Virus record (IMG/VR): IMGVR_UViG_3300037400_003880
Reading direction: 5' to 3' (one strand)
Source: a virus
Lineage: Duplodnaviria > Heunggongvirae > Uroviricota > Caudoviricetes
DNA: 29,267 bases
Of the stretch, positions 1,562-29,267 are shown in pieces (within the stretch, counting starts at the first letter, position 1; each line of letters opens with the position of its first letter). Below the pieces are notes generated by a model that saw only the letters and a program-made list of their open reading frames with translations, searched no databases and was not told where the DNA came from. The translations under genes and the position numbers were made by a program.

Positions 1562-2689
1562 ATGTTAGAAATTCAGAAGTTCATTCATGCTCATGACAAC
1601 TGGCGGGAGCTTTTGGCTGACGCGCCTTATAACTTGAAGATTTCTGAAGACGACGGTTATGTTCTCTTCAAGTATAATCAGATCAACTCTGACTTCACCG
1701 AGAAGATTTGTCGAGAGGCTCGTGGTCTTATCCTCGATTCCACTAACAACTTCAGCGTTGTAAGACTTGCCTTCGAGAAGTTTTTCAACCTTGATGAACA
1801 GTATGCAGTTCATATCGACTGGGATACTGCGGTCGCAACCGAGAAGATTGATGGCTCCATTATGTCTGTTTGGTATGCCCGCGGCAAGTGGCATTTAAGT
1901 ACAAATGGGACAATTGACGCATTCAAGGCAGAGCTCGGCGGCATCGGCCCGTACAAGACTTTCGGGGAACTCTTTGAGTCTGTATTGCCGCTGTCTACTT
2001 TCGAGAACTACAACAAGCATCGTTGCTGGACTTTTGAACTGGTATCTCCTTATAACAAGGTAGTTATCAACTATCCTGAGACTAAGGTATATCTCCTCTC
2101 TATTCGTGATATGTATTCTCTTGAAGAGCTCGACCTTGAAGCAGTAGAAATGATTGCAGATACTAACGGGATTACTGTACCTAAGCGTTATGACCTTAAC
2201 AACGAAGCTGACTACCGTCAGTTGGTTGAGCAGATGCCCGAAGGTCACGAAGGTATTGTTGTTAGAGATGCAATGGGACGGCGTGTGAAGATTAAGACTC
2301 TCCTTTACTTTCAAATGCATAAGGCTAAGAACAACGGAGTAATCACTTTGGAACGTATCGTTGATTTAATCAGAGCAAATGACCACTATGAGTTCCTCTC
2401 TTACTTCCCTGAGTATCAGTCTATTTTTGATAACATTGCTGAACAAATGACTGTTGCAAACCATCGAGTAACTGCAATCAAGGGGGTAGTAGAAAGATGG
2501 AAGATGGAGCATCAGTTTGTAGGTGACGTGCGTGCGCAGCGCAAGTATTTTGCTCAATATGTAAGGAAGGAAAACTTCGCGCCATTATTATTTGCAGAAT
2601 ATGATGGGAGACTTGACACTTTGCTTCAAAATATTACTACTCCTAAGTATATTTCGTTGTTTCATATTGTTTTACCGGAGGTTAGATAA
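1562..2689 (+). CDS. rnlA: T4 Rnl1-like ATP-dependent RNA ligase
   Basis: Nucleotidyltransferase motifs: ATEKIDGS (I), TFELVSPYN (III), EGIVV (IV), RVKIKT (V); LFKY, CREARGLILD and KFFN near the N-terminus. Confidence 0.9.
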   Translation: MLEIQKFIHAHDNWRELLADAPYNLKISEDDGYVLFKYNQINSDFTEKICREARGLILDSTNNFSVVRLAFEKFFNLDEQYAVHIDWDTAVATEKIDGSIMSVWYARGKWHLSTNGTIDAFKAELGGIGPYKTFGELFESVLPLSTFENYNKHRCWTFELVSPYNKVVINYPETKVYLLSIRDMYSLEELDLEAVEMIADTNGITVPKRYDLNNEADYRQLVEQMPEGHEGIVVRDAMGRRVKIKTLLYFQMHKAKNNGVITLERIVDLIRANDHYEFLSYFPEYQSIFDNIAEQMTVANHRVTAIKGVVERWKMEHQFVGDVRAQRKYFAQYVRKENFAPLLFAEYDGRLDTLLQNITTPKYISLFHIVLPEVR

Positions 2690-5652: not shown

Positions 5653-7074
5653 ATGAACAAAGTAAAGAAGTATTTTCCTGAAGCCGCTCTGAATAAGAAC
5701 AAGAACTCCGCAGCTCTTCTTACTTTTCTTGAGCTGCCGGCAGAAGTAAAAAGCTGGATTCTGATGAAGTTCACCGATGAAAAAGGAAGAGTAAATGCCT
5801 ATGGAATTTCTGAATATGTAAAGAGCTATCGTTTGCGTGCAGACGAGTGGAATATTCGCTTGCTTGAGGCTCGCCACTCAAAGAAGGGGACTATTACGCT
5901 TCTTACTAAAGTAAAGATTGAATTTGATTATGCAAATGACCTTATTTGTTTCTCTTTGCCGGAGTATGGATTCCCGAAAAAGCAAAAGGAGGCGCAAGTA
6001 GATTGGAGCGTTGTTTCTGAACAGAAGAAATATCTGTTGACTCCTGATGCAGCTTGGGGAGAAATCACCCTGATGTATGATTGCGGAGTAATTACTATGG
6101 TAAACTTTACTCCTCTTTGTCCTTATACTTTTGATTTGGGCAAGTATAGAGAGGGGCGCAAGAATTTCTCTACTCAAGAGTGGATTGACCTTTTATTGGG
6201 GGCATTGAATTTTAATCCAGAGGGGTTCGAGACTGTAGATCAGAAGCTGACAATCTTGCAGCGGTTCCTTCCTTTCGTGGAAAAGCGTCTTAACACCATT
6301 GAACTTGCAACAAAGGGCACTGGTAAATCCTACTGCTACTCCCAGCTCTCCCCGAAGACTTGGTGTGTGAGCGGCGGCACAGTGACTCGTGCAACAGCTT
6401 TCTACGATATGACTCGTAAGAAAGTAGGCTACTTCGGTCAGTATTCTCAGGTTATTTTTGATGAAGTTCAGACTATTAAGTTCCCGAATCCTGAAGAGAT
6501 TGGAGGTGCACTTAAGTCTTATCTGGAAAGCGGTGAAATTCGTTGTGGCTCTTTCGAGGGAATGTCAGACTCTGGACTTACCCTCGTTGGTAATATCCCA
6601 GTTGGTTCAATGGATACTAAGTCTTCCAATATGTTTAAGACTCTGCCGAAGATTTTCCATGAGTCCGCGCTTATTGATCGCTTTCATGGAATTATCGAAG
6701 GGTGGAAGATTCCTCGTATGAATGAAGATTTGAAGATGGAAGGATGGACACTTTCTACAGATTATGTGGTAAATATGTTTGACCAGCTTCGTGACGAGTT
6801 CTATTATCGAGCAATCGTTGATGAACTTATTGTGACCGAGGGGAAAGCTGATACTCGTAATCTTGAAGCGGTGAAAAGACTGGCAACAGGTTTCCTGAAG
6901 CTGCTCTTTCCTCACGTCACATCTTGTAAGGATATTGATGTTGCAGACTTCCGAGATTATTGTCTTGAGCCGGCGATGAAGATGCGCGGGGCTGTGCTCT
7001 CTCAGCTTCAGCAGCTTGATACAGAGTACGCAGATAAGACTATGCCGACAGTCCACATTTTGGAGGAGGAATAA
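5653..7074 (+). CDS. brxL: BrxL-like AAA+ ATPase lacking the C-terminal Lon protease domain
   Basis: EWIDLLL, LPFVE..NTIELATKGTGKSY (Walker A), VIFDEV (Walker B), LVGNI, SALIDRFHGIIEGWKIP, RNLEAVKRLATGFLKLLFP. Confidence 0.8.
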   Translation: MNKVKKYFPEAALNKNKNSAALLTFLELPAEVKSWILMKFTDEKGRVNAYGISEYVKSYRLRADEWNIRLLEARHSKKGTITLLTKVKIEFDYANDLICFSLPEYGFPKKQKEAQVDWSVVSEQKKYLLTPDAAWGEITLMYDCGVITMVNFTPLCPYTFDLGKYREGRKNFSTQEWIDLLLGALNFNPEGFETVDQKLTILQRFLPFVEKRLNTIELATKGTGKSYCYSQLSPKTWCVSGGTVTRATAFYDMTRKKVGYFGQYSQVIFDEVQTIKFPNPEEIGGALKSYLESGEIRCGSFEGMSDSGLTLVGNIPVGSMDTKSSNMFKTLPKIFHESALIDRFHGIIEGWKIPRMNEDLKMEGWTLSTDYVVNMFDQLRDEFYYRAIVDELIVTEGKADTRNLEAVKRLATGFLKLLFPHVTSCKDIDVADFRDYCLEPAMKMRGAVLSQLQQLDTEYADKTMPTVHILEEE

Positions 7075-8382: not shown

Positions 8383-8732
8383 GGGGGCGTAATGGTTTCG
8401 ACCGGCGTTTGACCTCTTTATTAGCGAGTAGCTGGCACAGCTTAAAGTGCAACTTAAACATAAACGTAGATTATTCTATAGCTGCCTGAGCTTAAAACAG
8501 TATTGCGCATAGGGAAAACTGTAGCTGACGTAGAAGTACCCGTACTACGCATAATATTCGTCAGAAAGGAAATGAGAAGTGACGCAGCTCATGGGTATCG
8601 TAAGCCGTCTACAGCAACGCCATTTGTTTGTTAGTTGTCATGGTCTTGCCGAAGTTTTACAATTAACTACACTCGTAGAAGGTAAAGAACGAAGATGTCG
8701 GGACAGCAGTTCAATTCTGCTCGCCTCCACCA
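8383..8732 (+). ncRNA. ssrA: tmRNA
   Basis: 5' GGGGGCGTAATGGTTTCGAC; 3' T-arm GCAG-TTCAATT-CTGC and CGCCTCCACCA; G3:U70 pair; tag frame ...GTA GAT TAT TCT ATA GCT GCC TGA (VDYSIAA). Confidence 0.93.
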
Positions 8733-11707: not shown

Positions 11708-11867
11708 TATTATAGAGAAATGAGGGGACAAGGAAAAGTCACTAAAACCAGTCTTGCGGCTTTAGACGTGATGGAGAGCCGATTGCAGACGCCATTGGCG
11801 GATGGAGGTAGAATCCCTTGATACGCAACTGGATAAGCGTAAGCAAAGAAATAAACCAGTATTTAAT

Positions 11868-11943
11868 GGGAAGATGGCGTACACGGTTGGCGCGCCGCAC
11901 TGAAAATGCGAGAACGCAGGTTCAACTCCTGCTCTTCCCACCA
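11868..11943 (+). tRNA. trnF-GAA: tRNA-Phe(GAA)
   Basis: GGGAAGA/TCTTCCC acceptor; loop CT-GAA-AA; CCA. Confidence 0.88.
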
Positions 11944-12092
11944 AGGAAACTGGCAATGACCACAGCAACCAGAGTTCCGTAGCAATTCTGTGGAGATTAG
12001 AAAAACCTTGACGGTTGGCGGTGAAATCGTAGGAGCATGGCGGCTAAAGGGATGCCATGCAGCTGAGAAGCGGGCGGTACTTCTCAAATAAT

Positions 12093-12896: not shown

Positions 12897-13123
12897 AAGT
12901 CCTTCTCACGCTGGACTTTAACCGCGCGTGGGTATGGGAGAGATTGTTTTGAGAGTAGCCCCTCACTCCATGAAGTAAAATCAAAGATGCCGCTTCTTCT
13001 CCGTTAGAGTAGTTCACTTCCGAGAACTGTTGGCTATGGCGTGCCTCTGTCGATCCTGAGGTCGGCACATTCCTTGTCGTTAGCTTGCTTGGCTTGACGT
13101 CATCAAGTAGGTTGGAAATATAT

Positions 13124-13208: not shown

Positions 13209-13237
13209 TTGACTTTTCTTAAAATCTATGATATAAT
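13209..13237 (+). promoter_or_regulatory. sigmaA-type promoter of the second tRNA cluster
   Basis: TTGACT-N17-TATAAT. Confidence 0.85.
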
Positions 13238-13347: not shown

Positions 13348-13468
13348 TACAAACTGGTTCCGCTAAGCTCCTTTGTGATTGTGGCGTAGATTAAAGCGTG
13401 TGTAGTTAAGGGGACACCGCCAGTTAAAGATTGGGAGTTAGCTCAGCTCGGCAGAGCGCGCGGCTGTT

Positions 13469-13939
13469 TACCTGACCTCAAACTTTGATTCTAATGAAAG
13501 AATTAAATTCAAAGCAAAAGGGAAATGTAACAGAAGTTGAACTTATCCTTGAATTTCTAAAACTTGGTTATAATGTTCTTACTCCATATGGAGATTGTGA
13601 ACGCTATGATTTCGTAGTAGATAAAGATGGGAAGTTCATTAAAGTACAAAGTAAAACAGCAGCATCTGATGACAATGGAGCATCTTTTAGAATTTCAACG
13701 ACAAGTTGTAATCGGAAAGATGGCAGAATTGTTCATCACACTTATTCCGAAGATGATATTGATTATTTTGCTACGGTTTTTGATGGAAAATCTTATCTTA
13801 TTCCTGTACAGCTTTGTCAGGGGCATAATAAGAAATTCCGAATTTTACCTGCACAGAATGGTCAAACTCGCGGAATAACTTGGGCAAAAGACTTCGTATT
13901 ACAAGAGGTGATAAAAGAAGTTTGAGCTGATGTGTAAGC
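13469..13939 (+). mobile_element. 471-nt tRNA intron/insertion encoding a homing endonuclease
   Basis: inserted between tRNA positions 36 and 37; terminal stem CTCAAACTT/AAGTTTGAG. Confidence 0.82.
13494..13925 (+). CDS. PD-(D/E)XK homing endonuclease (I-Ssp6803I/PDDEXK_5-like)
   Basis: KGNVTE, GYNVLTPYGDCERYDFVV, KVQSKT, YSEDDIDYF; no SD sequence. Confidence 0.85.
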   Translation: MKELNSKQKGNVTEVELILEFLKLGYNVLTPYGDCERYDFVVDKDGKFIKVQSKTAASDDNGASFRISTTSCNRKDGRIVHHTYSEDDIDYFATVFDGKSYLIPVQLCQGHNKKFRILPAQNGQTRGITWAKDFVLQEVIKEV

Positions 13940-14050
13940 AACCGCAAGGTCGAGGGTTCGAGTCCCTCACTCCCAGCCAATGGGACATTAAGTGCGTGAT
14001 AACTCTGGCGGTTGGTTATCTTGTAGCGTCCCTAAAGCCGCCAATTAAAT

Positions 14051-14206: not shown

Positions 14207-14241
14207 AAGGACTACCAGTAGTTAGCTACTATTGGGAAGTC

Positions 14242-14374
14242 TGTCAGCTCTGGCGTGCAGAATTTAAGTACGCCCCGCCTTTTGCAGCTTCAGCGGTAGT
14301 TGAAACTGTTGCACATCGACTAATTAAGTCATGCCGAGAAGTGATTGGAGGTTCGAATCCTCCCCTGACCTCCA
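14242..14374 (+). ncRNA. non-canonical tRNA-like element
   Basis: perfect T-arm GGAGG-TTCGAAT-CCTCC and 3' TCCA; GTCAG/CTGAC acceptor-like pairing; no canonical anticodon arm. Confidence 0.45.
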
Positions 14375-14612
14375 GAATTGCGGCGGATGTCTGCGGACTA
14401 AGCCTTGAAAATTAGATGCGTCTAATTTTCTAATGGTCGGGTGCGCTAAGTATGATTAAAGCGGCTTCGCTGGTAGATGCAGGAAAAACGTAAACCCTGT
14501 TGTGCGGCAATTCTAGTAGTTTATAAAAGAAAACGCTCGGTGCACAGAGAGAACTCGAAAGGGGCGGAATTGCTTAACAAAATAGTGCTTGCCGACGGGT
14601 GGGCGCTAATAT

Positions 14613-16482: not shown

Positions 16483-16698
16483 ATGGAAACTATGGATTTT
16501 TACTCGAAGGCAAAGGAACTGATGAATGAGCTGGTTGCAGAGGACGGCGAATGGGAGCGAATTGATTCGTCCGAAGACTATGACGCAATCAATTCTTTGT
16601 TCACGCAAGGTGAACTGACCGTGCTGCTCATCAAGCTGATGGAAGAGAAGTATGGCAAAAAGTGTCGCCCTTGGGGCTGTGAAGAGGAGTGTGAGTAA
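16483..16698 (+). CDS. hypothetical protein
   Basis: AAGGAGG RBS. Confidence 0.7.
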   Translation: METMDFYSKAKELMNELVAEDGEWERIDSSEDYDAINSLFTQGELTVLLIKLMEEKYGKKCRPWGCEEECE

Positions 16699-16699
16699 T

Positions 16700-17500
16700 A
16701 TGACGGATAAGCATATGGACGCAGTTATGGACTGCGTAAGATTTCTTGAGGGTGAGGGTTACACGGTAATCTACGTTGCTCTCTACGGTTCTCAGAACTA
16801 CGGTATGGATACTCCGCATTCTGACCATGACTTCAAGGCGGTTGTAGCTCCTAAGCTCTACGACATCGCGCTGGGTAAGCAGCCCGTCTCCAAGTGCGTA
16901 GAGTTCGGTGACGGTCTTGTGGACATTAAGGATGTCCGCTGTATGGTTGACAACTGGAAGAAGCAGAATGTAAACTTCCTTGAGCTTCTGTTCACGAAGT
17001 GGTTCTACCTGAACCCTGAGTTCGAGGACTTCATGTGGTTCCGTGAGAACGCAAATGCAATTGCCCATGCTGACGAAGGTCGGGCAATCAATGCAATGCT
17101 CGGTATGATGAAGGAAAAGCAGCACGCTCTGTGCAAGGACTACCCCGCCCAGCTCAAGGACATTGAAGCTCACGGCTACTCTGCAAAGCAGCTCTGTCAT
17201 ATCATCCGCCTTAACAACCTTATGAAGGACTACTTCCTTGAGGACTTTGGTACGATCCTTTGTCCGATGGAGGCGCGGCGTGTTTACATGATGAAGGTAA
17301 AGACATACGAGCAGCTTTTTACCCCTGAGCAAGCTCAGGCTGTAGCAGATGCTCTTGTTCGGACGAATGAGGAAGTAAGAGAATCCTATAAGGATAAGGT
17401 AGCTCCGATCCAGACGTCCATCATGGCAAAGATGGACGAGCACAAGGTTGAAGCAGTAAAGCATGCGCTTCAGCTCGAACTCATGAAGGAGGATATGTAA
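16700..17500 (+). CDS. pol-beta superfamily nucleotidyltransferase (RlaP/NrdC.11-like)
   Basis: LYGSQNYG...SDHDFKAVV signature; KQNVNFLELLF; KQLCHIIRL. Confidence 0.85.
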   Translation: MTDKHMDAVMDCVRFLEGEGYTVIYVALYGSQNYGMDTPHSDHDFKAVVAPKLYDIALGKQPVSKCVEFGDGLVDIKDVRCMVDNWKKQNVNFLELLFTKWFYLNPEFEDFMWFRENANAIAHADEGRAINAMLGMMKEKQHALCKDYPAQLKDIEAHGYSAKQLCHIIRLNNLMKDYFLEDFGTILCPMEARRVYMMKVKTYEQLFTPEQAQAVADALVRTNEEVRESYKDKVAPIQTSIMAKMDEHKVEAVKHALQLELMKEDM

Positions 17501-20927: not shown

Positions 20928-21314
20928 ATGTTTATGGATTTCACTAACGTAGAAGACAAGTCCGTTAAGACTGTAGCTCGTGCGACTGGTGTAGCGGAGC
21001 TTGAAGCGTGGCTCAAGGAGAACTTCGGTGAAGCGAATGTAACTCAGACTGGTTCTGGTGATTTCGCTGTGGCTCTCGGTGAGAAGGGCAACGAGGTTTG
21101 CGTTGAGTTCAGCGTAACTGCCAAGGATGTGTTCGACCGCCAGACTCCCAAGAAGGGACTTGTAAAGGCATTCGATCGTAAGGCGGCAGGTGACAAGTAT
21201 AAGGCAGACCGTGAGAAGGCTGAAGCAAACAAGGCAGCTCGCAAGGCAGTATCCGACAAGAACAAGGCTCGTGATAAGGCAAAGCGGGAGGCTGCGGCAG
21301 AAGCAGAAGACTAA
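20928..21314 (+). CDS. hypothetical protein, paralog family B, Lys/Ala-rich tail
   Basis: AAGGAG RBS; VTAK motif shared with 22092 and 28671. Confidence 0.75.
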   Translation: MFMDFTNVEDKSVKTVARATGVAELEAWLKENFGEANVTQTGSGDFAVALGEKGNEVCVEFSVTAKDVFDRQTPKKGLVKAFDRKAAGDKYKADREKAEANKAARKAVSDKNKARDKAKREAAAEAED

Positions 21315-21440
21315 TTGATTTAAGCGGCACGTGGTTCGGTACGGTTTCTGAATGACCCCGCTATAAAAATGTGGTGTAATTGTAACCGAGGTGCGCCTTA
21401 CCTAACCTTTCATCTTTGATAAAAAACGTTAAGGCAAAAA

Positions 21441-21540
21441 TGACCAGAGAGACTTGGATAGCGACCACTCCCATGAGTGGTAAGTGTGGTTCAATTCCAC
21501 CATTTGGAGTAAGGGCAGGTTCGACTCCTGCGCTGGTCAT
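21441..21540 (+). ncRNA. twin-T-arm tRNA-like RNA B
   Basis: TGACCAG/CTGGTCA closing stem; T-arms GTGG-TTCAATT-CCAC and GCAGG-TTCGACT-CCTGC. Confidence 0.6.
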
Positions 21541-21544
21541 AAAT

Positions 21545-21617
21545 CGCGCCATCGTCTAAGAGGTCAGGACGAGTCCCTTTCAAGGACTAAATGTGGGTTC
21601 GATTCCCGCTGGCGTGA
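21545..21617 (+). tRNA. trnE-TTC: tRNA-Glu(TTC)
   Basis: AGTCC-CTTTCAA-GGACT; no encoded CCA. Confidence 0.9.
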
Positions 21618-21673
21618 TGTCCTTAAAAAATTATGACTGCCGGCACAACTGCCGGAGAAAAGGAGAATGCCAA

Positions 21674-21856
21674 ATGAGAAAGCAGAATCAGAAGGTTCAG
21701 ACTCGTCAGATTACCGCAGGTGTTACCCTGACTGGTACGAAGTCTGTGGAATGGTGGGACGAGCAGGTTCGGAAGGATGTCGCAGCTCGGAAGGAAAACT
21801 TCTATACGAAGGACGTTTACTTTACGCCCGACTTCCAGCTCAAAGCTGAGGGCTGA
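21674..21856 (+). CDS. small hypothetical protein
   Basis: AAGGAG RBS, ATG 21674. Confidence 0.6.
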   Translation: MRKQNQKVQTRQITAGVTLTGTKSVEWWDEQVRKDVAARKENFYTKDVYFTPDFQLKAEG

Positions 21857-21976
21857 GAAGTCCTGATCCTTAACTAAAAGGGGAGGTTAGTTCGTAGTCT
21901 TAGGATTACACCAGAGCCTCCCCTTGATTAGGGAATTTGTTCACAAAAAGTTCATAATTTGTTTACAAAAAATCTA

Positions 21977-22005
21977 TTGACTTTTTTCAAAAAATATGAT
22001 ATAAT
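21977..22005 (+). promoter_or_regulatory. sigmaA-type promoter with upstream TTHACA repeats
   Basis: TTGACT-N17-TATAAT; repeats at 21940, 21951, 21962. Confidence 0.85.
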
Positions 22006-22091
22006 ATATATGTAAGATAAAGAAAAGGACAGAAACCAAAGAGGTTCCGTCCTACGAACCAGACAAAGTCTGGAGAAATGGAGAGTGCTAA

Positions 22092-22457
22092 ATGGCAGAT
22101 ATGGTTGAGAAGGTTCTCCCTGACTACACTGGCATGAAGGTTTCTCAGGTGAAGGCGGCAGTTCGTGCTCAGATTATGGAGGATTTCTTTGAGTTTCTTC
22201 AGCAGAAGTACAACACCTATGGTCAGGTTGCGGCAGGTGAGATTGCTTTCTATGCGGCAACTTTCACTGACGAGGATGGCTTCCAGCACGATGTGCCGGC
22301 AGTAATCAAGGTAACTGCGAAGCCGTTCTATGATTCCGTTGGAGAGAAGGGGCGTAAGACTGAGCCGTATGATGTAGAAGAGGAGATTAAGCAGTTTAAG
22401 CTGGCAAAGGCTGGTCAGGCAACTCGTCATAAGGGTCGCCCGAAGAAGGAGTCTTAA
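22092..22457 (+). CDS. hypothetical protein, paralog family B
   Basis: GGAG RBS; EDGF..D...IKVTAK. Confidence 0.75.
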   Translation: MADMVEKVLPDYTGMKVSQVKAAVRAQIMEDFFEFLQQKYNTYGQVAAGEIAFYAATFTDEDGFQHDVPAVIKVTAKPFYDSVGEKGRKTEPYDVEEEIKQFKLAKAGQATRHKGRPKKES

Positions 22458-22486
22458 AAAAAAGGAGAACGGAATCCGTTCTCCTT
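22456..22486. terminator. terminator hairpin between convergent genes
   Basis: AAGGAGAACGGA/TCCGTTCTCCTT with an A8 tract (U tract on the minus strand). Confidence 0.8.
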
Positions 22487-22492
22487 ATAGTA

Positions 22493-22828
22493 TCAACCAA
22501 ATTGAATTGTTTCTTCTTCAGGAGAAGTTCTAATTTCATAAGCCTAATCAATTTTGACATTTAGATTGTTAATGGTTTCTTCTAAAGATTGTCCATTAAC
22601 ACTTATGTCTCTTGAGTCAAGAGTGATTTTGTCCCCTACTTCTTGACCGCTTTCTACTTCTTTTAGTACGTAAGTAACAACTCCGTCTTCTAACCTTTTT
22701 TCGAGAGTATATCTGATGTTAGTCCCAGATGAGCCACCGCCGATTCCTCTCAGTCTAGCAAAATATGCGGGATCAATGGTATCATCTTTTCCACGATTTC
22801 GGTTGATATATCTACTCATTTTATTCAC
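22493..22828 (-). CDS. hypothetical (possibly virion-associated) protein; TAG at 22544-22546 read through
   Basis: GGAGGTG RBS; read-through adds QAYEIRTSPEEETIQFG and ends at a TGA adjacent to the terminator. Confidence 0.65.
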
Positions 22829-22979
22829 CTCCGAATATTATTGGCGCTCTGCCAATTCTAAAGAAAAGTGAGTAAAGGCACAAGAAAATCAAATAAAGTA
22901 AGGCTGTTAAGTAAATAATGAGAAAATTCTTCCTTTGCGACCGTAGTAAGCTTATTGAAATGTAAAGGAGGCTAAAGTA

Positions 22980-23195
22980 ATGAGAGAAGTAAATTTTTCA
23001 GAAGTTATTAAAGCAGTACGAACATTTGATGAGGCTTCAGAAGTTTTTCTTGATTCTATTGAGAAGAATTTTGGAGAAGTTCCTTAGGAATTGATGAACT
23101 GTTGTTATAAAGTGCTTAATTTAACAGCAGAATTGATGGCATCAGAGGGAATGAATAGAGAAGAAGTGGAAATGAAGATTTTTGAGGGGCGGTAA
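22980..23195 (+). CDS. 71-aa hypothetical protein with in-frame TAG (23085-23087)
   Basis: AAGGAGG RBS; MREVNFSEVIK...GEVP*ELMNCCYK...KIFEGR. Confidence 0.65.
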
Positions 23196-23259
23196 TAAGA
23201 ATGGCGTCGTGAATTTTATGGTTGCGGCGCCATTTAAGTTTAGTTAGGAGGTTCATATA

Positions 23260-23673
23260 ATGGGTGATTTTGAAAATGTGCCGTTGACTGTAACGGAAAG
23301 AAAAATATTGGCAAATTAGGAGTAGCAAAAACGGCAGAAAATTCTTTATAAGATTGGTTATAATACTGCTGGCTGCTATGAATTAACTTTTCCAAATGGA
23401 AAGAAATATATAGGGAAATCAATTAAGTTAGGTCATCGAATCGCAGACCACTTGAGAGAATTAATTCCGACAAATGGTAAGGTTATTAAGAAGTATAGTA
23501 TGAATTGGTATGCAATAGCTGTTAAAGAAAATGAAGGGCGGCTCAATTCCATTAGTGATATTAGAATACGAGGATGGCGGAGTAAGAGTTGTGACATTTT
23601 AGAAAAATAGTTGCTTTCTTCTATTCCAGTAGAAGAGCGATGCAATTATTATAATGAAATTTTTTATGACTGA
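23260..23673 (+). CDS. GIY-YIG endonuclease with three in-frame TAG codons
   Basis: AGGAGGT RBS; GCYELTFPNGKKYIGKSIKLGHRIADH, ILEK*LL, NYYN; TAG at 23317, 23323, 23608. Confidence 0.82.
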
Positions 23674-23839
23674 ATTGATTGAGTTAAAAGAGGGGATGAA
23701 AACAATAGAGTAAATGCCAGATCAAACAACTTATTAACTGATTAAGAGAAATTTAATTAAACGTAATTGGGAAAGTAATTATTAAGGTAATTATAGAGTA
23801 TAATTAAGATTATAATATAGAGTAATTAAAGAAGTAATA

Positions 23840-24100
23840 AAGAGAGAAGAAGAATAGAAGAAAAACAAAAGGAGGACAAAAGGAAAAGAACAGAACGGAA
23901 AGAGGAAGAACGGAAGAAGAACAGAAGAAGAACAGAAGAAGAACAGAAGAAGAAGAAGAACAGAAGAAGAAGAACAAAAAAAAGGAAACGGGATAGAGAA
24001 CGGAAGAAGAACAGAAGAAGAAGAACAGTAATAGAAGTAGTAGTAGAAGAAGAAGAACAGAATAACAGAAAGAATGAGAACGAAAAGGAGTAGTACCTAA
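23840..24100 (+). repeat. polypurine (GAA)n/AAGAAGAACAG low-complexity tract
   Basis: repeated GAAGAACAGAA units; almost no T over 23860-24020. Confidence 0.8.
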
Positions 24101-24280
24101 AGTAATACTATAACTATAATAAAGAGTAATAATAAAGGGAGCCGAGTCTCGTGGGAACCTTACCCCTTAAGCCCTACGAATCCTAAAAAAATAAAGCCCC
24201 TCAAAATCAGAGATAGGGGCTTGGGAATTGGTTTGTTGAAGATGGGGCATATTGGCATCATAACCCACACATTGACGGGT

Positions 24281-24360
24281 TGAAATGTGCGTTAGCAGGA
24301 TGAAATGTGCGATAGCAAGAAATAATGTGCGATAGCAGGATGAAATGTGCGTGGCAACAC
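24281..24360 (+). repeat. four 20-bp tandem direct repeats (TGAAATGTGCGWTAGCAGGA)
   Basis: exact 20-nt period. Confidence 0.8.
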
Positions 24361-24473
24361 AGCAACGAAAAAGTCAAGTAAATAATAAATTAAATAAATA
24401 AGGGGGAGTCAAGATTTTCAAGATACGGCGGCACGAAACCACTTAAAAGTGAACGGGGAGGATAGTCAAGAAT

Positions 24474-24502
24474 TTGACTTTTCTTTCAGTTTGTGATATA
24501 AT
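24474..24502 (+). promoter_or_regulatory. sigmaA-type promoter
   Basis: TTGACT-N17-TATAAT. Confidence 0.8.
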
Positions 24503-24530
24503 TAAGTAAAGAGAGGAGGGAAAAACTACA

Positions 24531-25217
24531 ATGATTTAGTTCGTTTATAGCATAACGATCCAAAAGGAAGGCGATTTCCTGAGCTTTTTGAAGAGTTTTG
24601 ACAAGAAAATAATGATAAATGACAAGGTTATTGACAAAAATAACAAATCAGGCGTGATTCATGGTGAAAACAGTGTGGAAACTATAGTATTTATAGAGAA
24701 ATTAAGTGCGGATGACTTCAAAAGTATGAGAGAACTGTGGAAAAAGATAACAATTGAACGGGAACTATCGTTGGAATACGTGAGAGATGGATGGGTTTGG
24801 TTGCTACCGTTTCAGCAGCTCCACAGCGGTCCAGATCGACCATACAATCAGATAATTAAGCACAATGGCTTACCGACCACGCGCTCCGCCAAGAAGAAGG
24901 ACAAGCCAGATCTTAGGCTAAGAAGGGCAGAAGCCAGAGACTATGGTAGTGTTGAAGAGGGGGACGATCCAGATAGCTCAGCTCAAACAATTCTTGAGGA
25001 GCTACTCAAACCAGAGTGGCTAGGATGGTGGCATCGCCGCTTCATTTATCTTTACCATTATTATGGGAACCATTGCAGTTGTTATAAGGAACGCTTTATT
25101 TATGACGCTTTTATTGCTACTGTTTGGGAGATCTCTAAAGTTATAGGTGTGCCGCCCCTTGATATTTGTGAGATTTATCGCGCGGCGCGCCCCGTTTATA
25201 ATAAACTTTATATGTAA
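24531..25217 (+). CDS. hypothetical protein with in-frame TAG at codon 3
   Basis: AGGAGG RBS; ATG ATT TAG TTC... is in frame with ORF 24588..25217. Confidence 0.7.
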
Positions 25218-25221
25218 GAAA

Positions 25222-25258
25222 TGGGCAGTTTCCTTTGTTGGAGCTGCCCAATTTTTAT
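25222..25258 (+). terminator. rho-independent terminator
   Basis: TGGGCAGTTTCC/GGAGCTGCCCA + T tract. Confidence 0.75.
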
Positions 25259-25609
25259 TGTTGTTTTCGGTTTCATTTGATTTCCAATTCTTGTACTAAA
25301 AAAGGGGATTAGAAGATTTAATCGAAAGGCTTAGTAGAGGGATCTTCAGTACCGGATTTTGCCTCTTCTTAACTTTTGTTTTTGTGCGGGCGCCGGCGCG
25401 CCTAAAATAGGGGTCACTTTAAATAGGAGTTCTTTTTAACTTAGAGGGGTCTTTTCTTTTTAAAAATCGGGGCGGAGAATAGAGGGGATTTTTATAGGGG
25501 ATCCTGCTTGGAAAAAGCTTTGAGATTTTGAGCTAAAAATGGGGGTTAGAATAATCCTTCCAAAACCTATAGTGGCTTTGAGTTCGGTACCGGATTTTGC
25601 CTCTTGCAA

Positions 25610-25820
25610 TTGCAGCTCACGGAATCCCTGAGCAGCTCCGAAATAGGGTTTTTTTCTTTAAGTAGGAATTGCAGCTCACAGCTCCAAACTTTTCCAGCTC
25701 ACCCTGATTTAGCAGCTCACGACCGAGATCGTTTTTTCTTCAAGTAGGAATTGCAGCTCACGGCTCTAAGAGTTCCAGCTCACATAGGCACCGAGATCAC
25801 GGAGCTGTTCCAGCTCATGC
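25610..25820 (+). repeat. cluster of co-oriented (G/C)CAGCTC motifs
   Basis: about 9 copies. Confidence 0.75.
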
Positions 25821-25934
25821 ATTTGTTTTTACTGGATCGCGACTGCCGAGGAGATCTTCGTGACAATGCCGCGGCGTCACCTCGATCCGATCCTCCGTTC
25901 ACAGAATGTTCACAATTTGTTTACAGAAAATCCA

Positions 25935-25963
25935 TTGACTTTTCCCGAAAAATATGGTATAAT
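25935..25963 (+). promoter_or_regulatory. sigmaA-type promoter with upstream TTHACA repeats
   Basis: TTGACT-N17-TATAAT; repeats at 25898, 25909, 25920. Confidence 0.85.
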
Positions 25964-26071
25964 ATATATGTAAGATAAAGGAAAGGGCTGGAGCCAAGAG
26001 GTGCGGGAAAGGCGCACTGAGGTACCGCCCGCCGTTCACAAAATGTTCACAAAAAGTTCAGAGTTATTTAA

Positions 26072-26100
26072 TTGACTTTTTGCGAAAAATGTGGTATAAT
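26072..26100 (+). promoter_or_regulatory. sigmaA-type promoter with upstream TTHACA repeats
   Basis: TTGACT-N17-TATAAT; repeats at 26035, 26046, 26057. Confidence 0.85.
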
Positions 26101-26208
26101 ATATATGTAAGATAAAGAGAGAAGCGGTAAGCAAGAGGTGCGTGCTGGCTTCCTCCACGAGATTAGTCCTCTCGTGAACAGGCGTAATACGCCAGATAGG
26201 AGAACACT

Positions 26209-26664
26209 ATGGCAGCTATGACTATGAAGCAGTTCCTGACCGCAGTTACCGAGATGACCGAGAAGCCGGAGCTGGTCGAGTTCGCTAAGGCTCAGCTGGA
26301 GAAGCTGGACGAGAAGAACGCCAAGCGCCGCACTACCCTGACCTCTGCCCAGAAGGCGACCATTCAGGTAGTCACCGCTTACGCTTCCACTCTGGCAAAG
26401 GGTGAGGTCGTAACCTCTGCTATCGTCTCCACCGCACTGGGCGTCACCTCTCAGCGTGCGACCGCACTGCTGAAGAAGGGTGTAGAGCTGGGCTTCTTCA
26501 CCGAGACCGAGCCTGTGAAGGGTAAGTCTGGTAAGGTGAAGGGCTACGCTCGCACCGAAGCCGGCAACCACCCCGTAGAGACCGAGGAGGTCGAGGATGG
26601 CGAAGCCGAGGAGCTGGGTGAGTTCGAGGACGAGCTGACCGACGAGGAGCTGTCCGAGGACTGA
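26209..26664 (+). CDS. winged-HTH-like protein, paralog family A
   Basis: AGGAG RBS; VTSQRATALLKKGV...PVKGKSGKVKGY; acidic tail. Confidence 0.8.
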   Translation: MAAMTMKQFLTAVTEMTEKPELVEFAKAQLEKLDEKNAKRRTTLTSAQKATIQVVTAYASTLAKGEVVTSAIVSTALGVTSQRATALLKKGVELGFFTETEPVKGKSGKVKGYARTEAGNHPVETEEVEDGEAEELGEFEDELTDEELSED

Positions 26665-26686
26665 CGTTTCACATGAAACACAATGG

Positions 26687-26719
26687 GAGCTGGTGCCCTG
26701 ACGGGTGCCAGCTCTTTTT
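26687..26719 (+). terminator. rho-independent terminator
   Basis: GAGCTGGTGCCC/GGGTGCCAGCTC + T5. Confidence 0.8.
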
Positions 26720-26913
26720 GCAGCTCACTTTAGCGCTTTAAAGCGGTGATCTCCCAGCTCGCATGATGCAGCTCATACGCAATCGCAGCTCACGGATGCA
26801 GCTCACGGGAGCCGATCTAAGGGCGGGATCGACGATGCAGCTCGCCGATGGTTAGACGCAGGCAACAATACCTACTATTCCGATCTGAATGGTAGGAGTT
26901 AGCCATTGCTAAC

Positions 26914-27316
26914 CGAACGTTTGTTCGCCCGAACGTTTGTTCGCCTACTAAACCTACTAAACCTATAGGTTTTAGGACTTTAAAGCGCTAAAGCGCAGAT
27001 CCGCCCCTTATTATTATACCACATAAATATGAACGTGGTATGAACTGGATGTAAACAATTTGTTAAGAACATATGTTCTTCGGCATTATAACCAAAAAAC
27101 TTTCAACTTGTTGAAAAATTTTGTGCAAGTTGTATGAAGATCGGTTTTCAACATTCTCCACCAAATTTTGTGCAGTATGCCTAAACCTAGTAAACCTATA
27201 GGAATAGTAGGAATTGCCCGGGCCCGATCCGGACTCGAACATATGTTCGCCTGCCCGGGTCCGCCCGAACGTTTGTTCTCCCCGCCTGGATCCGGTCCGT
27301 CCAGAACGTTTGTTCT
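26914..27316. promoter_or_regulatory. cluster of six GAAC-N4-GTTC (Firmicute LexA/Cheo box-like) sites
   Basis: sites at 26914, 26930, 27067, 27236, 27266, 27303. Confidence 0.7.
27013..27066 (-). promoter_or_regulatory. extended -10 promoter with four 11-bp-phased TTHAYA repeats and no -35
   Basis: minus strand: TTAACA-N5-TTTACA-N5-TTCATA-N5-TTCATA...TGGTATAAT. Confidence 0.65.
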
Positions 27317-27443
27317 TTTTGCCCGGGCCCCAGATCAGCACTTTAAAGTGCTAAAGTGTCCGTGGACACTTTCGTGGACTAAAGTGGGGTGTCCTCGATC
27401 CGCGTACACTTTAGCGATTTAAAGCATTAAAGTGTGAGGTCGG

Positions 27444-27475
27444 AAAAATGTCCGCCAGAGGCGGACACTTTTTTT
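27444..27475. terminator. bidirectional terminator
   Basis: A5-TGTCCGCC-aga-GGCGGACA-CT7. Confidence 0.8.
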
Positions 27476-27896
27476 AGTCCTCGACTGCATCGGGATCCGC
27501 GTCAGCATCCGCGTCCGCGGGTGCATCCGCATCCGCGAACTTGTAAGCCTTGACCTTGCCCGACTTGCCCTTGACGGGCTCGACCTCTACGAGGACGCCC
27601 GCCTTGACACCCGCGCGGAGGACGGCGGTAGACTTCTGCGAGGTCACGCCCAGCAGACCCGCCACAGACGCGGAGGTGAGAACCTCGCCCGCCTTGACAG
27701 CCGCGCGGAGGGTGGCGAGGGTGGCGGTGTTAGCCGCAGAAGCCTTCTCCTGCGCCTTAGCGCGGCGGGCGGCGTTCTTGCCATCGGTCTTGTTGAGCGC
27801 GGCGAGCGCGTAGGCGCGGATGTCCTCGTCAGTGGTGGTGTTGAGGACTGCGGTCAGGAACTCGGTGTTAGTCTTGATAGTCATGGTGTTCTCCAT
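27474..27896 (-). CDS. winged-HTH-like protein, paralog family A (start may be 27884)
   Basis: VTSQKSTAVLRAGV...PVKGKSGKVKAY; acidic tail. Confidence 0.8.
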   Translation of the reverse strand: MENTMTIKTNTEFLTAVLNTTTDEDIRAYALAALNKTDGKNAARRAKAQEKASAANTATLATLRAAVKAGEVLTSASVAGLLGVTSQKSTAVLRAGVKAGVLVEVEPVKGKSGKVKAYKFADADAPADADADADPDAVED

Positions 27897-27959
27897 TCTC
27901 CATGCCTTGCATGGTAGGCGTTTTTCGGGTTTTGGGCTTTTCCCTCACCCTGTACTATT

Positions 27960-27988
27960 ATTATACCACACTTTTCGGAGTTTGTCAA
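27960..27988 (-). promoter_or_regulatory. sigmaA-type promoter
   Basis: minus strand TTGACA-N17-TATAAT. Confidence 0.85.
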
Positions 27989-28234
27989 CTGGCATTTTGC
28001 ACAAACTTTTGTGTGGATTTTTGTGAGGATTGAACGGATGGTACTGGCGGTTCTGGAATTCACGCAATATGGGGATTTTTCCCCCTTGCTACCCTCCTAC
28101 GGTCGCATCCGTCCTATAACCGAACAACCCTCTGCCCGACAGCGGTAACGAGCTACATATTCCGCGATTTATTGGGGAAAATCGTAACCCTGTAAGCGTT
28201 TCGGGGTTTTTCTCCCCCTCAACCTTACATATAT

Positions 28235-28263
28235 ATTATACCATATTTTTTGGAAAAAGTCAA
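28235..28263 (-). promoter_or_regulatory. sigmaA-type promoter
   Basis: minus strand TTGACT-N17-TATAAT, same cassette as the plus-strand copies. Confidence 0.85.
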
Positions 28264-28464
28264 ATTAGCTGCTGCGTTTTTGCCCATATATCGCCATAAA
28301 AAGCCCCAAAAATTTCGGCACCTTGTACACTATTTTCAACAACTGGGATCCTCTTTTGTGCATTTTGCTGGTGTCTTTGTACGGCGTACACTTTCATGGA
28401 CTAAAGTAAACTGTTCTCCTGTGGCGGACAGCGATAGTTAGACTATCACTTTGATAGTTTAACT

Positions 28465-28660
28465 CGCTAAAGCGCCAGATCCTCTTCTCCTTTAGCGCTT
28501 TAAAGCGCTAAAGATCTGCCCGGTCCATTTGTACATATTGACGAGAACGTATGTTCCGATCCGCCCGGGCACTTTCACACTTTAAAGCATTAAAGCAATC
28601 CAGATCTTTTGTACTTTAAAGCACTAAAGCGATCCAGATCTTTCGCGCACTAAAGCGCGA
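28465..28660. repeat. cluster of CTTTAAAG-N(3)-TAAAG / TTTAGCGCTAAAG palindromic motifs
   Basis: about 5 copies here; further copies at about 26729, 26978, 27341, 27409. Confidence 0.75.
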
Positions 28661-28685
28661 AAAACGGCGATTATCCGCCGTTTTT
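28660..28685. terminator. bidirectional terminator overlapping the stop of 28671..29033
   Basis: AAAAACGGCG-attatc-CGCCGTTTTT. Confidence 0.75.
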
Positions 28686-29033
28686 CACCTCCTTCAAAGC
28701 CTCCCGAATATCGTCCATGTTTAGCGCTAAAGTCACACGCTCCGACTTGGTGCAAACGTCATTCCAGTTTTTGACAGTCATGCCAATAATCACGATTGCA
28801 TCCACAAGAAAACCGTCCTTGTTAGTGACCTGACCCACACAAACAACCACGCTATTTCCCGTGATTTTTACGGGCGACCCCTCCTCCTTGGCAACCTCGA
28901 TGGTTTTGGGGATAAAGAGGACGTTTTCCTCTCCATACTCTACCACCATAGCGCTATAGATAACCTTCCCGACCTCTACACGGATGGCGTTCTTGCGTGC
29001 GGTATCGTTTTTCATCTCGTCAAGATTCATCAT
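28671..29033 (-). CDS. hypothetical protein, paralog family B
   Basis: AAGGAGG RBS; EYGEENV, KDGFLVD...MTVK. Confidence 0.75.
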   Translation of the reverse strand: MMNLDEMKNDTARKNAIRVEVGKVIYSAMVVEYGEENVLFIPKTIEVAKEEGSPVKITGNSVVVCVGQVTNKDGFLVDAIVIIGMTVKNWNDVCTKSERVTLALNMDDIREALKEVKNGG

Positions 29034-29076
29034 ACTTGTATCCTCCTTATTGGTTCTATGTCCTTACTACTCTTAT

Positions 29077-29105
29077 ATTATACTACATTTTTCGGGATTT
29101 GTCAA
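29077..29105 (-). promoter_or_regulatory. sigmaA-type promoter
   Basis: minus strand TTGACA-N17-TATAAT. Confidence 0.8.
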
Positions 29106-29267
29106 ATTGAACCCCTTGAAAAACTTCGATATATGGACGAAAAAGGATCCGAAATCTTTGTGACATTTGCACAAACGGCGGCTGCGCACAGATCGATTGG
29201 TTGTGCATCTTGCACAAATTTTTTGACCGAGTTTTTGGCTAAGGATCGGCATTTTTCTGCTACCCTG

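Follow-up and report, generated by a model that had tools for sequence, protein, structure and literature searches.

The window, a 29,267-nt stretch of phage DNA (IMG/VR record IMGVR_UViG_3300037400_003880), contains a tRNA cluster in which the gene for tRNA-Asn(GUU), accompanied by 15 other tRNAs and a tmRNA, is split by a 471-nt insert between nucleotides 36 and 37 (Table 1). The insert is nearly filled by an endonuclease ORF, which leaves 25 nt before its ATG and 14 nt after its stop, that is, 39 nt of non-coding sequence in total. The ORF matches Pfam PF11645 (E=5e-30) and I-Ssp6803I (PDB 2OST, E=3e-13), and the residues E14, D39, Q52 and K54, which make up the E...D...QxK active site of PF11645, were invariant in 50 homologs.

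Table 1 Features of the split tRNA-Asn gene, its insert and two putative RNA-repair genes of the window.
Feature	Position	Strand	Remarks
T4 Rnl1-like RNA ligase	1562..2689	+	PF09511, phrog_562
Sigma-70/sigma-A type promoter-like site	13209..13237	+	TTGACT, 17 nt, TG-N-TATAAT; putative, by reading the sequence; upstream of tRNA-Met and the split tRNA-Asn
tRNA-Asn 5' exon, nt 1-36	13432..13468	+	3' end is the anticodon GUU (13466-68)
Inner helix, 5' strand	13466..13472	+	anticodon and first four insert nt; pairs with 13932-13939
Insert at 36/37	13469..13939	+	471 nt; without ribozyme core
G·A module, 5' strand (UGAC)	13473..13476	+	G and A invariant in 42/42 of the clade
Outer stem, 5' arm	13477..13486	+	pairs with 13917-13926; 95% paired, covarying
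In-frame UUG at stem end	13485..13487	+	predicted start; 8 nt from the tail SD across the helix
PD-(D/E)XK endonuclease ORF	13494..13925	+	PF11645, I-Ssp6803I family; 143 aa from ATG, 146 aa from UUG
Shine-Dalgarno (SD) sequence AAGAGGTGA	13903..13911	+	within the last ORF codons; -12.9 kcal/mol
Outer stem, 3' arm	13917..13926	+	holds the stop TGA (13923-25)
G·A module, 3' strand (CUGAU)	13927..13931	+	CU faces one C, then G, A, U
Inner helix, 3' strand	13932..13939	+	T13933 bulged; terminal AGC pairs with the anticodon
tRNA-Asn 3' exon, nt 37 onward	13940..13979	+	
RlaP-like nucleotidyltransferase	16652-17500		PF10127, just under curated cut-off; RNA-repair partner of ligases

Standard tRNA finders miss or misname such genes: one tRNA scan overlooked the window copy, and the intron mode of ARAGORN called it tRNA-Asp. 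Joining the exons at 36/37 gives the normal tRNA-Asn loop, CU GUU AA, whereas a 35/36 register would give Asp. The tRNA body is of the Asn type (U1-A72, G73 and A38), and two phage contigs (L238, L239) carry empty tRNA-Asn alleles with an identical, uninterrupted anticodon arm; therefore, the tRNA is Asn and the site is 36/37, and sequence comparison with the empty alleles defines the insert boundaries at the DNA level.

Elsewhere in the window, the phage tmRNA occupies 8383-8732; its ARAGORN tag call looks wrong, and translation at about 8457-8490 gives NINVDYSIAA-stop, which ends as tags typically do. The stretches 11750-12090, 12900-13120 and 14210-14600 between the tRNAs are non-coding and have no Rfam match at gathering score, and the end of 14300-14376 resembles a tRNA 3' half. 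A BrxL-like Lon ATPase gene (PF13337, PF20442) lies at 5653-7074, and the coding density of the plus strand is low over 21000-29267, with 28% in ATG ORFs of at least 60 aa. There was no sign of TAG recoding in the window; its close relatives L003, L004 and L008 read TAG as Gln, L008 having TAG at a CAG of the window.

A protein search returned 560 homologs. Matches were located in 127 loci, 122 of which were parsed as inserts directly 3' of an anticodon, mostly in tRNA-Asn but also in Ile, Lys, Thr and single other tRNAs, and the 36/37 site was fixed in about 120 loci. ARAGORN intron mode mis-paired the halves in several loci, so the junctions were re-parsed, about 25 of them by hand, and L061, L081, L082, L083 and L126 were excluded from the junction set. 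For the covariation counts, the 122 inserts were reduced to 70 representatives sharing less than 90% amino acid identity; these counts are of sequences and not of independent events, and the changes are spread over several branches of the protein tree. A small number of members are degenerate, and the carrier hosts look bacterial by promoter and SD style. One member resides in the cultured Enterococcus phage EFP01 (KY549443, L240, about 105250-105790), where the split tRNA-Asn is unannotated and the CDS is annotated from a later start. An IMG/VR search found no short insert lacking the ORF, and we found no description of this insert family in the literature searched, in which subscription journals were thinly covered. 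In a separate observation, a 20-kb stretch of one genome (L138; G010, 120001-140000) contains at least five PF11645 inserts in tRNA genes (two Met-type, two Lys and one Thr), together with an ARAGORN tRNA call with the anticodon UUA.

The protein family and the fixed insertion site point to homing: at the anticodon, the endonuclease would cleave tRNA-Asn genes that lack the insert, and the element would spread in this way. Free-standing endonucleases of phage tRNA regions include T4 SegB and the PF11645 genes of Ackermannviridae, My1 and Vibrio phage Pylo. Relatives with 30-35% identity in enterobacterial and Vibrio phages lie, like the present family, in tRNA clusters; unlike the insert, however, these free-standing genes adjoin annotated intact tRNA genes and do not interrupt them. 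I-Ssp6803I itself belongs to a group I intron in the anticodon loop of Synechocystis tRNA-fMet. The insert likewise encodes an enzyme of this family (PF11645, PDB 2OST) within a tRNA anticodon loop, but it has no group I core, its last nucleotide is C (65/70) or A (5/70) and never the terminal G, it sits at 36/37 and its ends pair with the anticodon. I-Ssp6803I is listed as a homing endonuclease (PMC3424549).

Tested against the hallmarks of group I, group II and bulge-helix-bulge introns, the insert matches none of these classes. No Rfam intron match, group I or group II, was obtained for the insert at E<=5, and the catalytic core P3-P9 of group I introns is absent, with only 25 + 14 non-coding nt present. 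Its ends read UACCU...GC, not the GUGYG...AY of group II introns, and domain V is absent by the Rfam search. A bulge-helix-bulge (3-nt bulge, 4-bp helix, 3-nt bulge) was not found at the junctions, where the helix is continuous. We also considered a group I-type junction at 35/36, with U·G at the 5' site and a terminal G, which would yield tRNA-Asp(GUC) through a ribozyme supplied in trans. The ARAGORN intron mode call of Asp and the U35·G pair in 44/70 representatives agree with such a junction, which is nevertheless hardly credible, given the Asn-type body, the empty alleles reading CUGUUAA, the lack of any group I match at E<=5, and the Lys and Ile members, which have no terminal G in the 35/36 register, where the Lys members would moreover acquire a UUA anticodon.

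The earlier note had proposed that the two ends of the insert form a paired stem. All six sequence strings it quoted are present where it placed them, and the endonuclease stop TGA indeed lies within the outer stem. The pairing of GTTTAC with GTAAGC is real, but the note had omitted the bulged T13933 and the C13472-G13932 pair. The duplex of the anticodon and insert ends has a folding energy of -15.1 kcal/mol, compared with -6.3 +/- 1.9 kcal/mol for shuffled sequences, only 1 in 3000 of which was as low; with the exon arms included, the value is -26.6 kcal/mol, reached by 0/3000 shuffles. Numbering the insert I1 to n, the six inner pairs are 34:n, 35:n-1, 36:n-2, I1:n-3, I2:n-4 and I3:n-5. Across the 70 representatives they are 97% paired, compared with 34-52% in slid registers and a mean of 71% (maximum 78%) in cross-locus shuffles, and the I2 and I3 columns each contain five or more pair types. 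The seven outer pairs are 95% paired in the 42 representatives that carry the G·A module described below (cross-locus mean 66%, maximum 76%), again with several pair types per column. Both helices thus withstood the covariation check that the earlier note had suggested, with compensatory changes in each.

The pairing of the insert end with the anticodon tracks the target tRNA, as AGC:GUU, AAA/AGA:UUU and AUC:GAU, the last three bases of Lys- and Ile-targeting elements having changed to fit the new anticodon; the three positions are paired in 69, 66 and 70 of 70. A U33-A37 pair, present in 68/70, links the anticodon arm with the rod and thereby places both junctions within one continuous helix, staggered by three pairs; from 33:37 to I3:n-5 this helix is 93-100% paired. 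By this covarying pairing, the proposal that the ends bring the two putative splice sites together is borne out. G·U pairs are frequent, indicating that the pairing operates at the RNA level, and excision through a DNA-level inverted repeat is disfavored for the same reason. Whole-precursor minimum free energy folding did not recover the rod, since the coding sequence competes, and the support for the rod is covariation and local folds. On this evidence, the insert ends form a conserved, covarying RNA rod, in which both helices are real. In the transcript, they would extend the anticodon arm into this rod, a step backed by the covariation, and the inner helix would mask the anticodon and set both junctions on one duplex.

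Two sets of loci deviate in the anticodon. L082 and L087 (about 2480-2930) carry the insert in a tRNA with the ochre-reading anticodon UUA; there, the anticodon pairs with the TAA stop of the ORF itself, and the usual internal loop is absent. In L046 and L085/L116, GUU is changed to GCU in an Asn-type body, which strengthens the pairing with the insert end; these are possibly degenerate copies.

Between the two helices lies an internal loop, which the earlier note had described as CTGA facing CTGATG and had interpreted as a box C/D, K-turn-like junction. A G·A loop is present there, but the loop proper consists of UGAC (13473-76) opposite CUGAU (13927-31). In 42 representatives the strands read 5' Y-U-G-A-C and 3' C-U-G-A-U-G. 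Both GA steps and the U preceding the 3' GA are invariant (42/42), giving a tandem G·A/A·G, presumably sheared, at 1b·1n and 2b·2n in all 42; next comes a U·U pair in almost every member, with C-G or U·G as the fourth pair in 39/42. The module is invariant while the neighboring stems vary and protein identity falls to 48%, which indicates selection, and coding does not explain the conservation, since the 3' UGA is the ORF stop in only 11/42. The conservation of CUGA/UGAUG expected by the earlier note therefore holds for the GA core in 42/70 but fails in the other 28/70, in whose rod an A/CA loop or a symmetric loop takes its place; these include the whole Ile clade and several Asn members. The module is confined to one part of the protein tree, with about four changes, and its distance to the junctions varies by one nt on each strand.

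A standard K-turn is characterized by a 50-degree kink and A-minor hydrogen bonds. Its Watson-Crick C helix leads, 5' to 3', into a 3-nt bulge, after which come G·A and A·G pairs (PMC5061560, PMC4316175), and standard and box C/D K-turns are bound by L7Ae, YbxF and YlxQ (PMC5061560, PMC4316175). The earlier note's proposal that CUGA/CUGAUG is such a K-turn, bound by host YbxF/YlxQ as a recognition element for processing, draws on real similarities: the tandem G·A/A·G, the U·U that comes next and the C-G (or U·G) in fourth place (39/42), the invariance of these positions amid varying stems, and L7Ae-family genes in the Firmicutes controls and in the Bacillota MAG behind L123. In addition, six Asn-type members from SD-poor contexts, perhaps non-Firmicutes hosts, lack the module, through one or two events. 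The geometry, however, is that of a 4+3 loop, in which a single C faces CU and no 3-nt bulge occurs 5' of G1b. A register with a 3-nt bulge is only 26% paired, its first pair being C·A in 38/42, and the C helix does not start from a Watson-Crick -1b·-1n pair, the -1n nucleotide being C in 41/42 and facing A with a 3-nt bulge, C with a 1-nt bulge, or G with loss of register with a 2-nt bulge. Thirty-nine members could accommodate a 2-nt bulge with an additional bulged C, but L079 and L110 could not. At the place of box D (CUGA), the sequence is CUGA in 26/42 and UUGA in 14/42, and in place of the box C consensus RUGAUGA that the note invoked, the 3' strand is mostly CUGAUGU, which has C for R and U for the final A. 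The opposite orientation of a K-turn was ruled out by its conflict with the covarying inner-helix pairs, and no L7Ae gene was found in 25 phage records.

By its sequence and register, therefore, the loop is not a standard or box C/D K-turn, and its absence from 28/70 representatives (40% of the family) that keep the rod shows that it is not the general processing signal of the family, contrary to the role suggested for it in the earlier note. Together with the junction distance that varies on both strands, this makes the K-turn explanation very unlikely. We infer that the loop is a tandem module of sheared G·A pairs peculiar to the Asn clade, where it would act structurally or bind a protein; YbxF/YlxQ as its accessory binder, in this clade only, is unlikely.

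The initiation signals of the endonuclease ORF are arranged unusually. The leader in the window has no SD (best, -2.6 kcal/mol), and the best anti-SD match in the ORF is AAGAGGTGA, near its 3' end. Among the 70 representatives, the SD was found in the tail only in 60, in the leader only in 3, in both in none and in neither in 7. At the tail-SD site, Glu is encoded by GAG in 38/57, compared with 0-25% at the other well-filled Glu columns outside the site, and Leu TTG/CTG (33/58) and Val GTG (22/49) are raised there only; different amino acid strings (LEEV, QEV, KVV, RMV) all encode an SD. One insert nested among the tail-SD members (L019) has lost the tail SD and has a leader SD, and four more distant inserts have a leader SD and, as judged by eye, no clear tail SD. 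In the six Asn-type members with neither SD, the neighboring genes seldom bear one (3/25 vs 70/152 and 31/61). Pairing of the SD-like tract with the leader was ruled out; the Ile clade has no partner for it.

The spacing between the tail SD and the main AUG, about 15 nt on first estimate, exceeds what a split site would allow. For the G·A clade, and only there, this difficulty is resolved by start codons at the end of the 5' arm of the outer stem, present in 34/41 members against 9.6 expected from shuffles, with an SD-to-start spacing across the helix of 5-8 nt in 29 members. The stem-end start may be in frame, as is the UUG/GUG in 6/6 representatives of the subclade to which the window belongs; otherwise it begins a short ORF (mostly 2-7 codons) ending at or near the main AUG. 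In L020, L023, L024, L027, L029, L038, L046, L052 and L101, an upstream ORF of 4-5 codons runs from the stem end and stops in an AUGA overlap with the endonuclease start, which suggests initiation followed by re-initiation. Among the Ile-type and other non-G·A members, a stem-end start occurs in 6/19, and the main AUG is about 10-18 nt away.

The outer stem would thus bring the tail SD beside a start codon at the opposite end of the gene, and the endonuclease would be translated only while the insert ends are held together. From the SD placement, codon choice and spacing, we consider such split-site translation likely. The site would serve the precursor, an end-paired intron after excision and a circle equally well, and it is therefore no proof of splicing. 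In T4 genes 38 and 25, which have split ribosome-binding sites, a stem shortens the SD-start distance to 5 and 11 nt (PMC3014915). The insert is similar in that a stem shortens an over-long SD-to-start distance, here mostly to 5-8 nt, but here the SD follows the start codon at a distance of about 420 nt, in the 3' end of the same ORF, and becomes upstream only via end pairing or circularization.

We next consider the fate of the insert in the transcript. Our best reading, which we favor slightly, is that it is a mobile, ribozyme-free, protein-spliced tRNA intron; that the insert is spliced at all appears somewhat more probable than that it is retained. A protein nuclease would cut the junctions, leaving 3-nt 3' overhangs because of the stagger in the rod, and a phage or host RNA ligase would join the exons and perhaps close the intron. 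Spliced products generated in silico passed ARAGORN with the expected anticodon in 64/68 cases. The U35·G pair is kept in 44/70 and position 32·38 remains unpaired in 59/69, though one change would strengthen the helix, and this persistence is expected if the loop must decode. Five near-complete genomes (G002, G006, G007, G017 and G020) contained no other Asn-anticodon gene by a genome-wide pattern search and local ARAGORN. Against splicing, G001, G004 and G008 have a second intact tRNA-Asn. This second gene (also in G009 and G003, by pattern) has a U31-A39 pair, unlike the interrupted alleles, and is possibly endonuclease-resistant.

The DNA cut of I-Ssp6803I leaves the anticodon as a 3-nt 3' overhang. 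This is the stagger that splicing would need, which makes the protein encoded by the insert, by analogy, a candidate cutter of the rod. EndA and RNase III genes were absent from five carrier phage genomes. No ligase is common to the carriers: Rnl1 was found in 3/15 complete records, RtcB in 4/15 and PF09414 in 10/15, some of the PF09414 matches probably being DNA ligases, and none was found in G021. The differing ligases of the carriers need different end chemistries, and the Rnl1-like ligase of the window is a candidate joiner in this phage only.

The main competing explanation is that the insert is never spliced: a dispensable phage tRNA would be destroyed and its frame kept as a stable scaffold, trimmed by RNase P/Z, whose rod hides the anticodon from synthetases and ribosomes and builds the split ribosome-binding site. 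Any helix extending the anticodon arm past U33-A37 is bound to match nt 34 with the final nt of the insert. Geometry by itself therefore fixes the exact register without any need for splicing, which counts against taking the register as evidence for it. Through the split site, the outer stem acquires its own function, and the carriers searched lack a splicing enzyme or common ligase. The scaffold would also accommodate the GUU-to-GCU changes that keep pairing (L046, L085), chimeric arms (L024, L027), the second Asn copies and the failure to find an ORF-less derivative. Against this, the exons remain tRNA-like in 64/68, although intact exons may be only a trace of recent homing. Moreover, the anticodon-loop positions are of the decoding type and not helix-optimal, and at least five inserts in 20 kb of one genome (L138) would be a heavy loss if each killed its tRNA. 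On balance, we regard an unspliced scaffold as possible but rather unlikely.

RNase III leaves 2-nt overhangs. A third possibility is that host RNase III or Mini-III cuts out the insert as an intervening sequence, with such overhangs, and that the tRNA halves stay unjoined or have their ends healed by repair enzymes (RlaP, Thg1-like, ligases). The rod forms a long duplex with few irregularities, rRNA intervening sequences provide a precedent, being excised by RNase III without ligation (PMC11270868), and the window has its RlaP-like gene (sub-cut-off) and L005-L007 have Thg1 genes nearby. In the covarying register, however, a 2-nt stagger would yield an anticodon loop of 6 or 8 nt, and a tRNA broken at the anticodon cannot decode, which renders this route highly improbable.

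Archaeal bulge-helix-bulge introns in tRNA and rRNA are cut by EndA and circularized, and some carry homing endonuclease ORFs. The insert resembles them in its apparently protein-dependent design, with a long ORF in a loop closed by a junction-joining stem, but its junctions lie in a continuous helix, its carriers look like bacterial phages and no EndA was found in the five carrier genomes. Lak megaphages also have unexplained introns in their tRNAs, one of them predicted to hold a tRNA-like insert, and the part of that account available to us mentions no endonuclease ORF (PMC6784885).

Both leading readings, a spliced intron and an unspliced scaffold, are undescribed in the literature searched. 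Tentatively, the family may represent a class of widespread mobile phage tRNA introns that have neither ribozyme nor bulge-helix-bulge and are cut by protein from a continuous duplex. The cutter would possibly be the intron's own PD-(D/E)XK enzyme, with any available RNA ligase joining the exons, and the excised end-paired or circular intron would serve as the mRNA, since closure alone puts the 3'-end SD upstream. To our knowledge, tRNA introns of bacteria and their phages are removed only by self-splicing; if the spliced reading is true, a protein that cuts an ordinary duplex would amount to a new chemistry of splicing and give phage RNA ligases a new role. The K-turn idea, which fails on geometry and distribution, is of lower value. 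The split ribosome-binding site across intron ends appears to be new, and it matters independently of splicing: an SD in the last codons of a gene, working across paired ends, would be an unusual gate for a toxic nuclease, which a simple reporter can test. As a member resides, unannotated, in the cultured phage EFP01, both splicing and the split site are directly testable.
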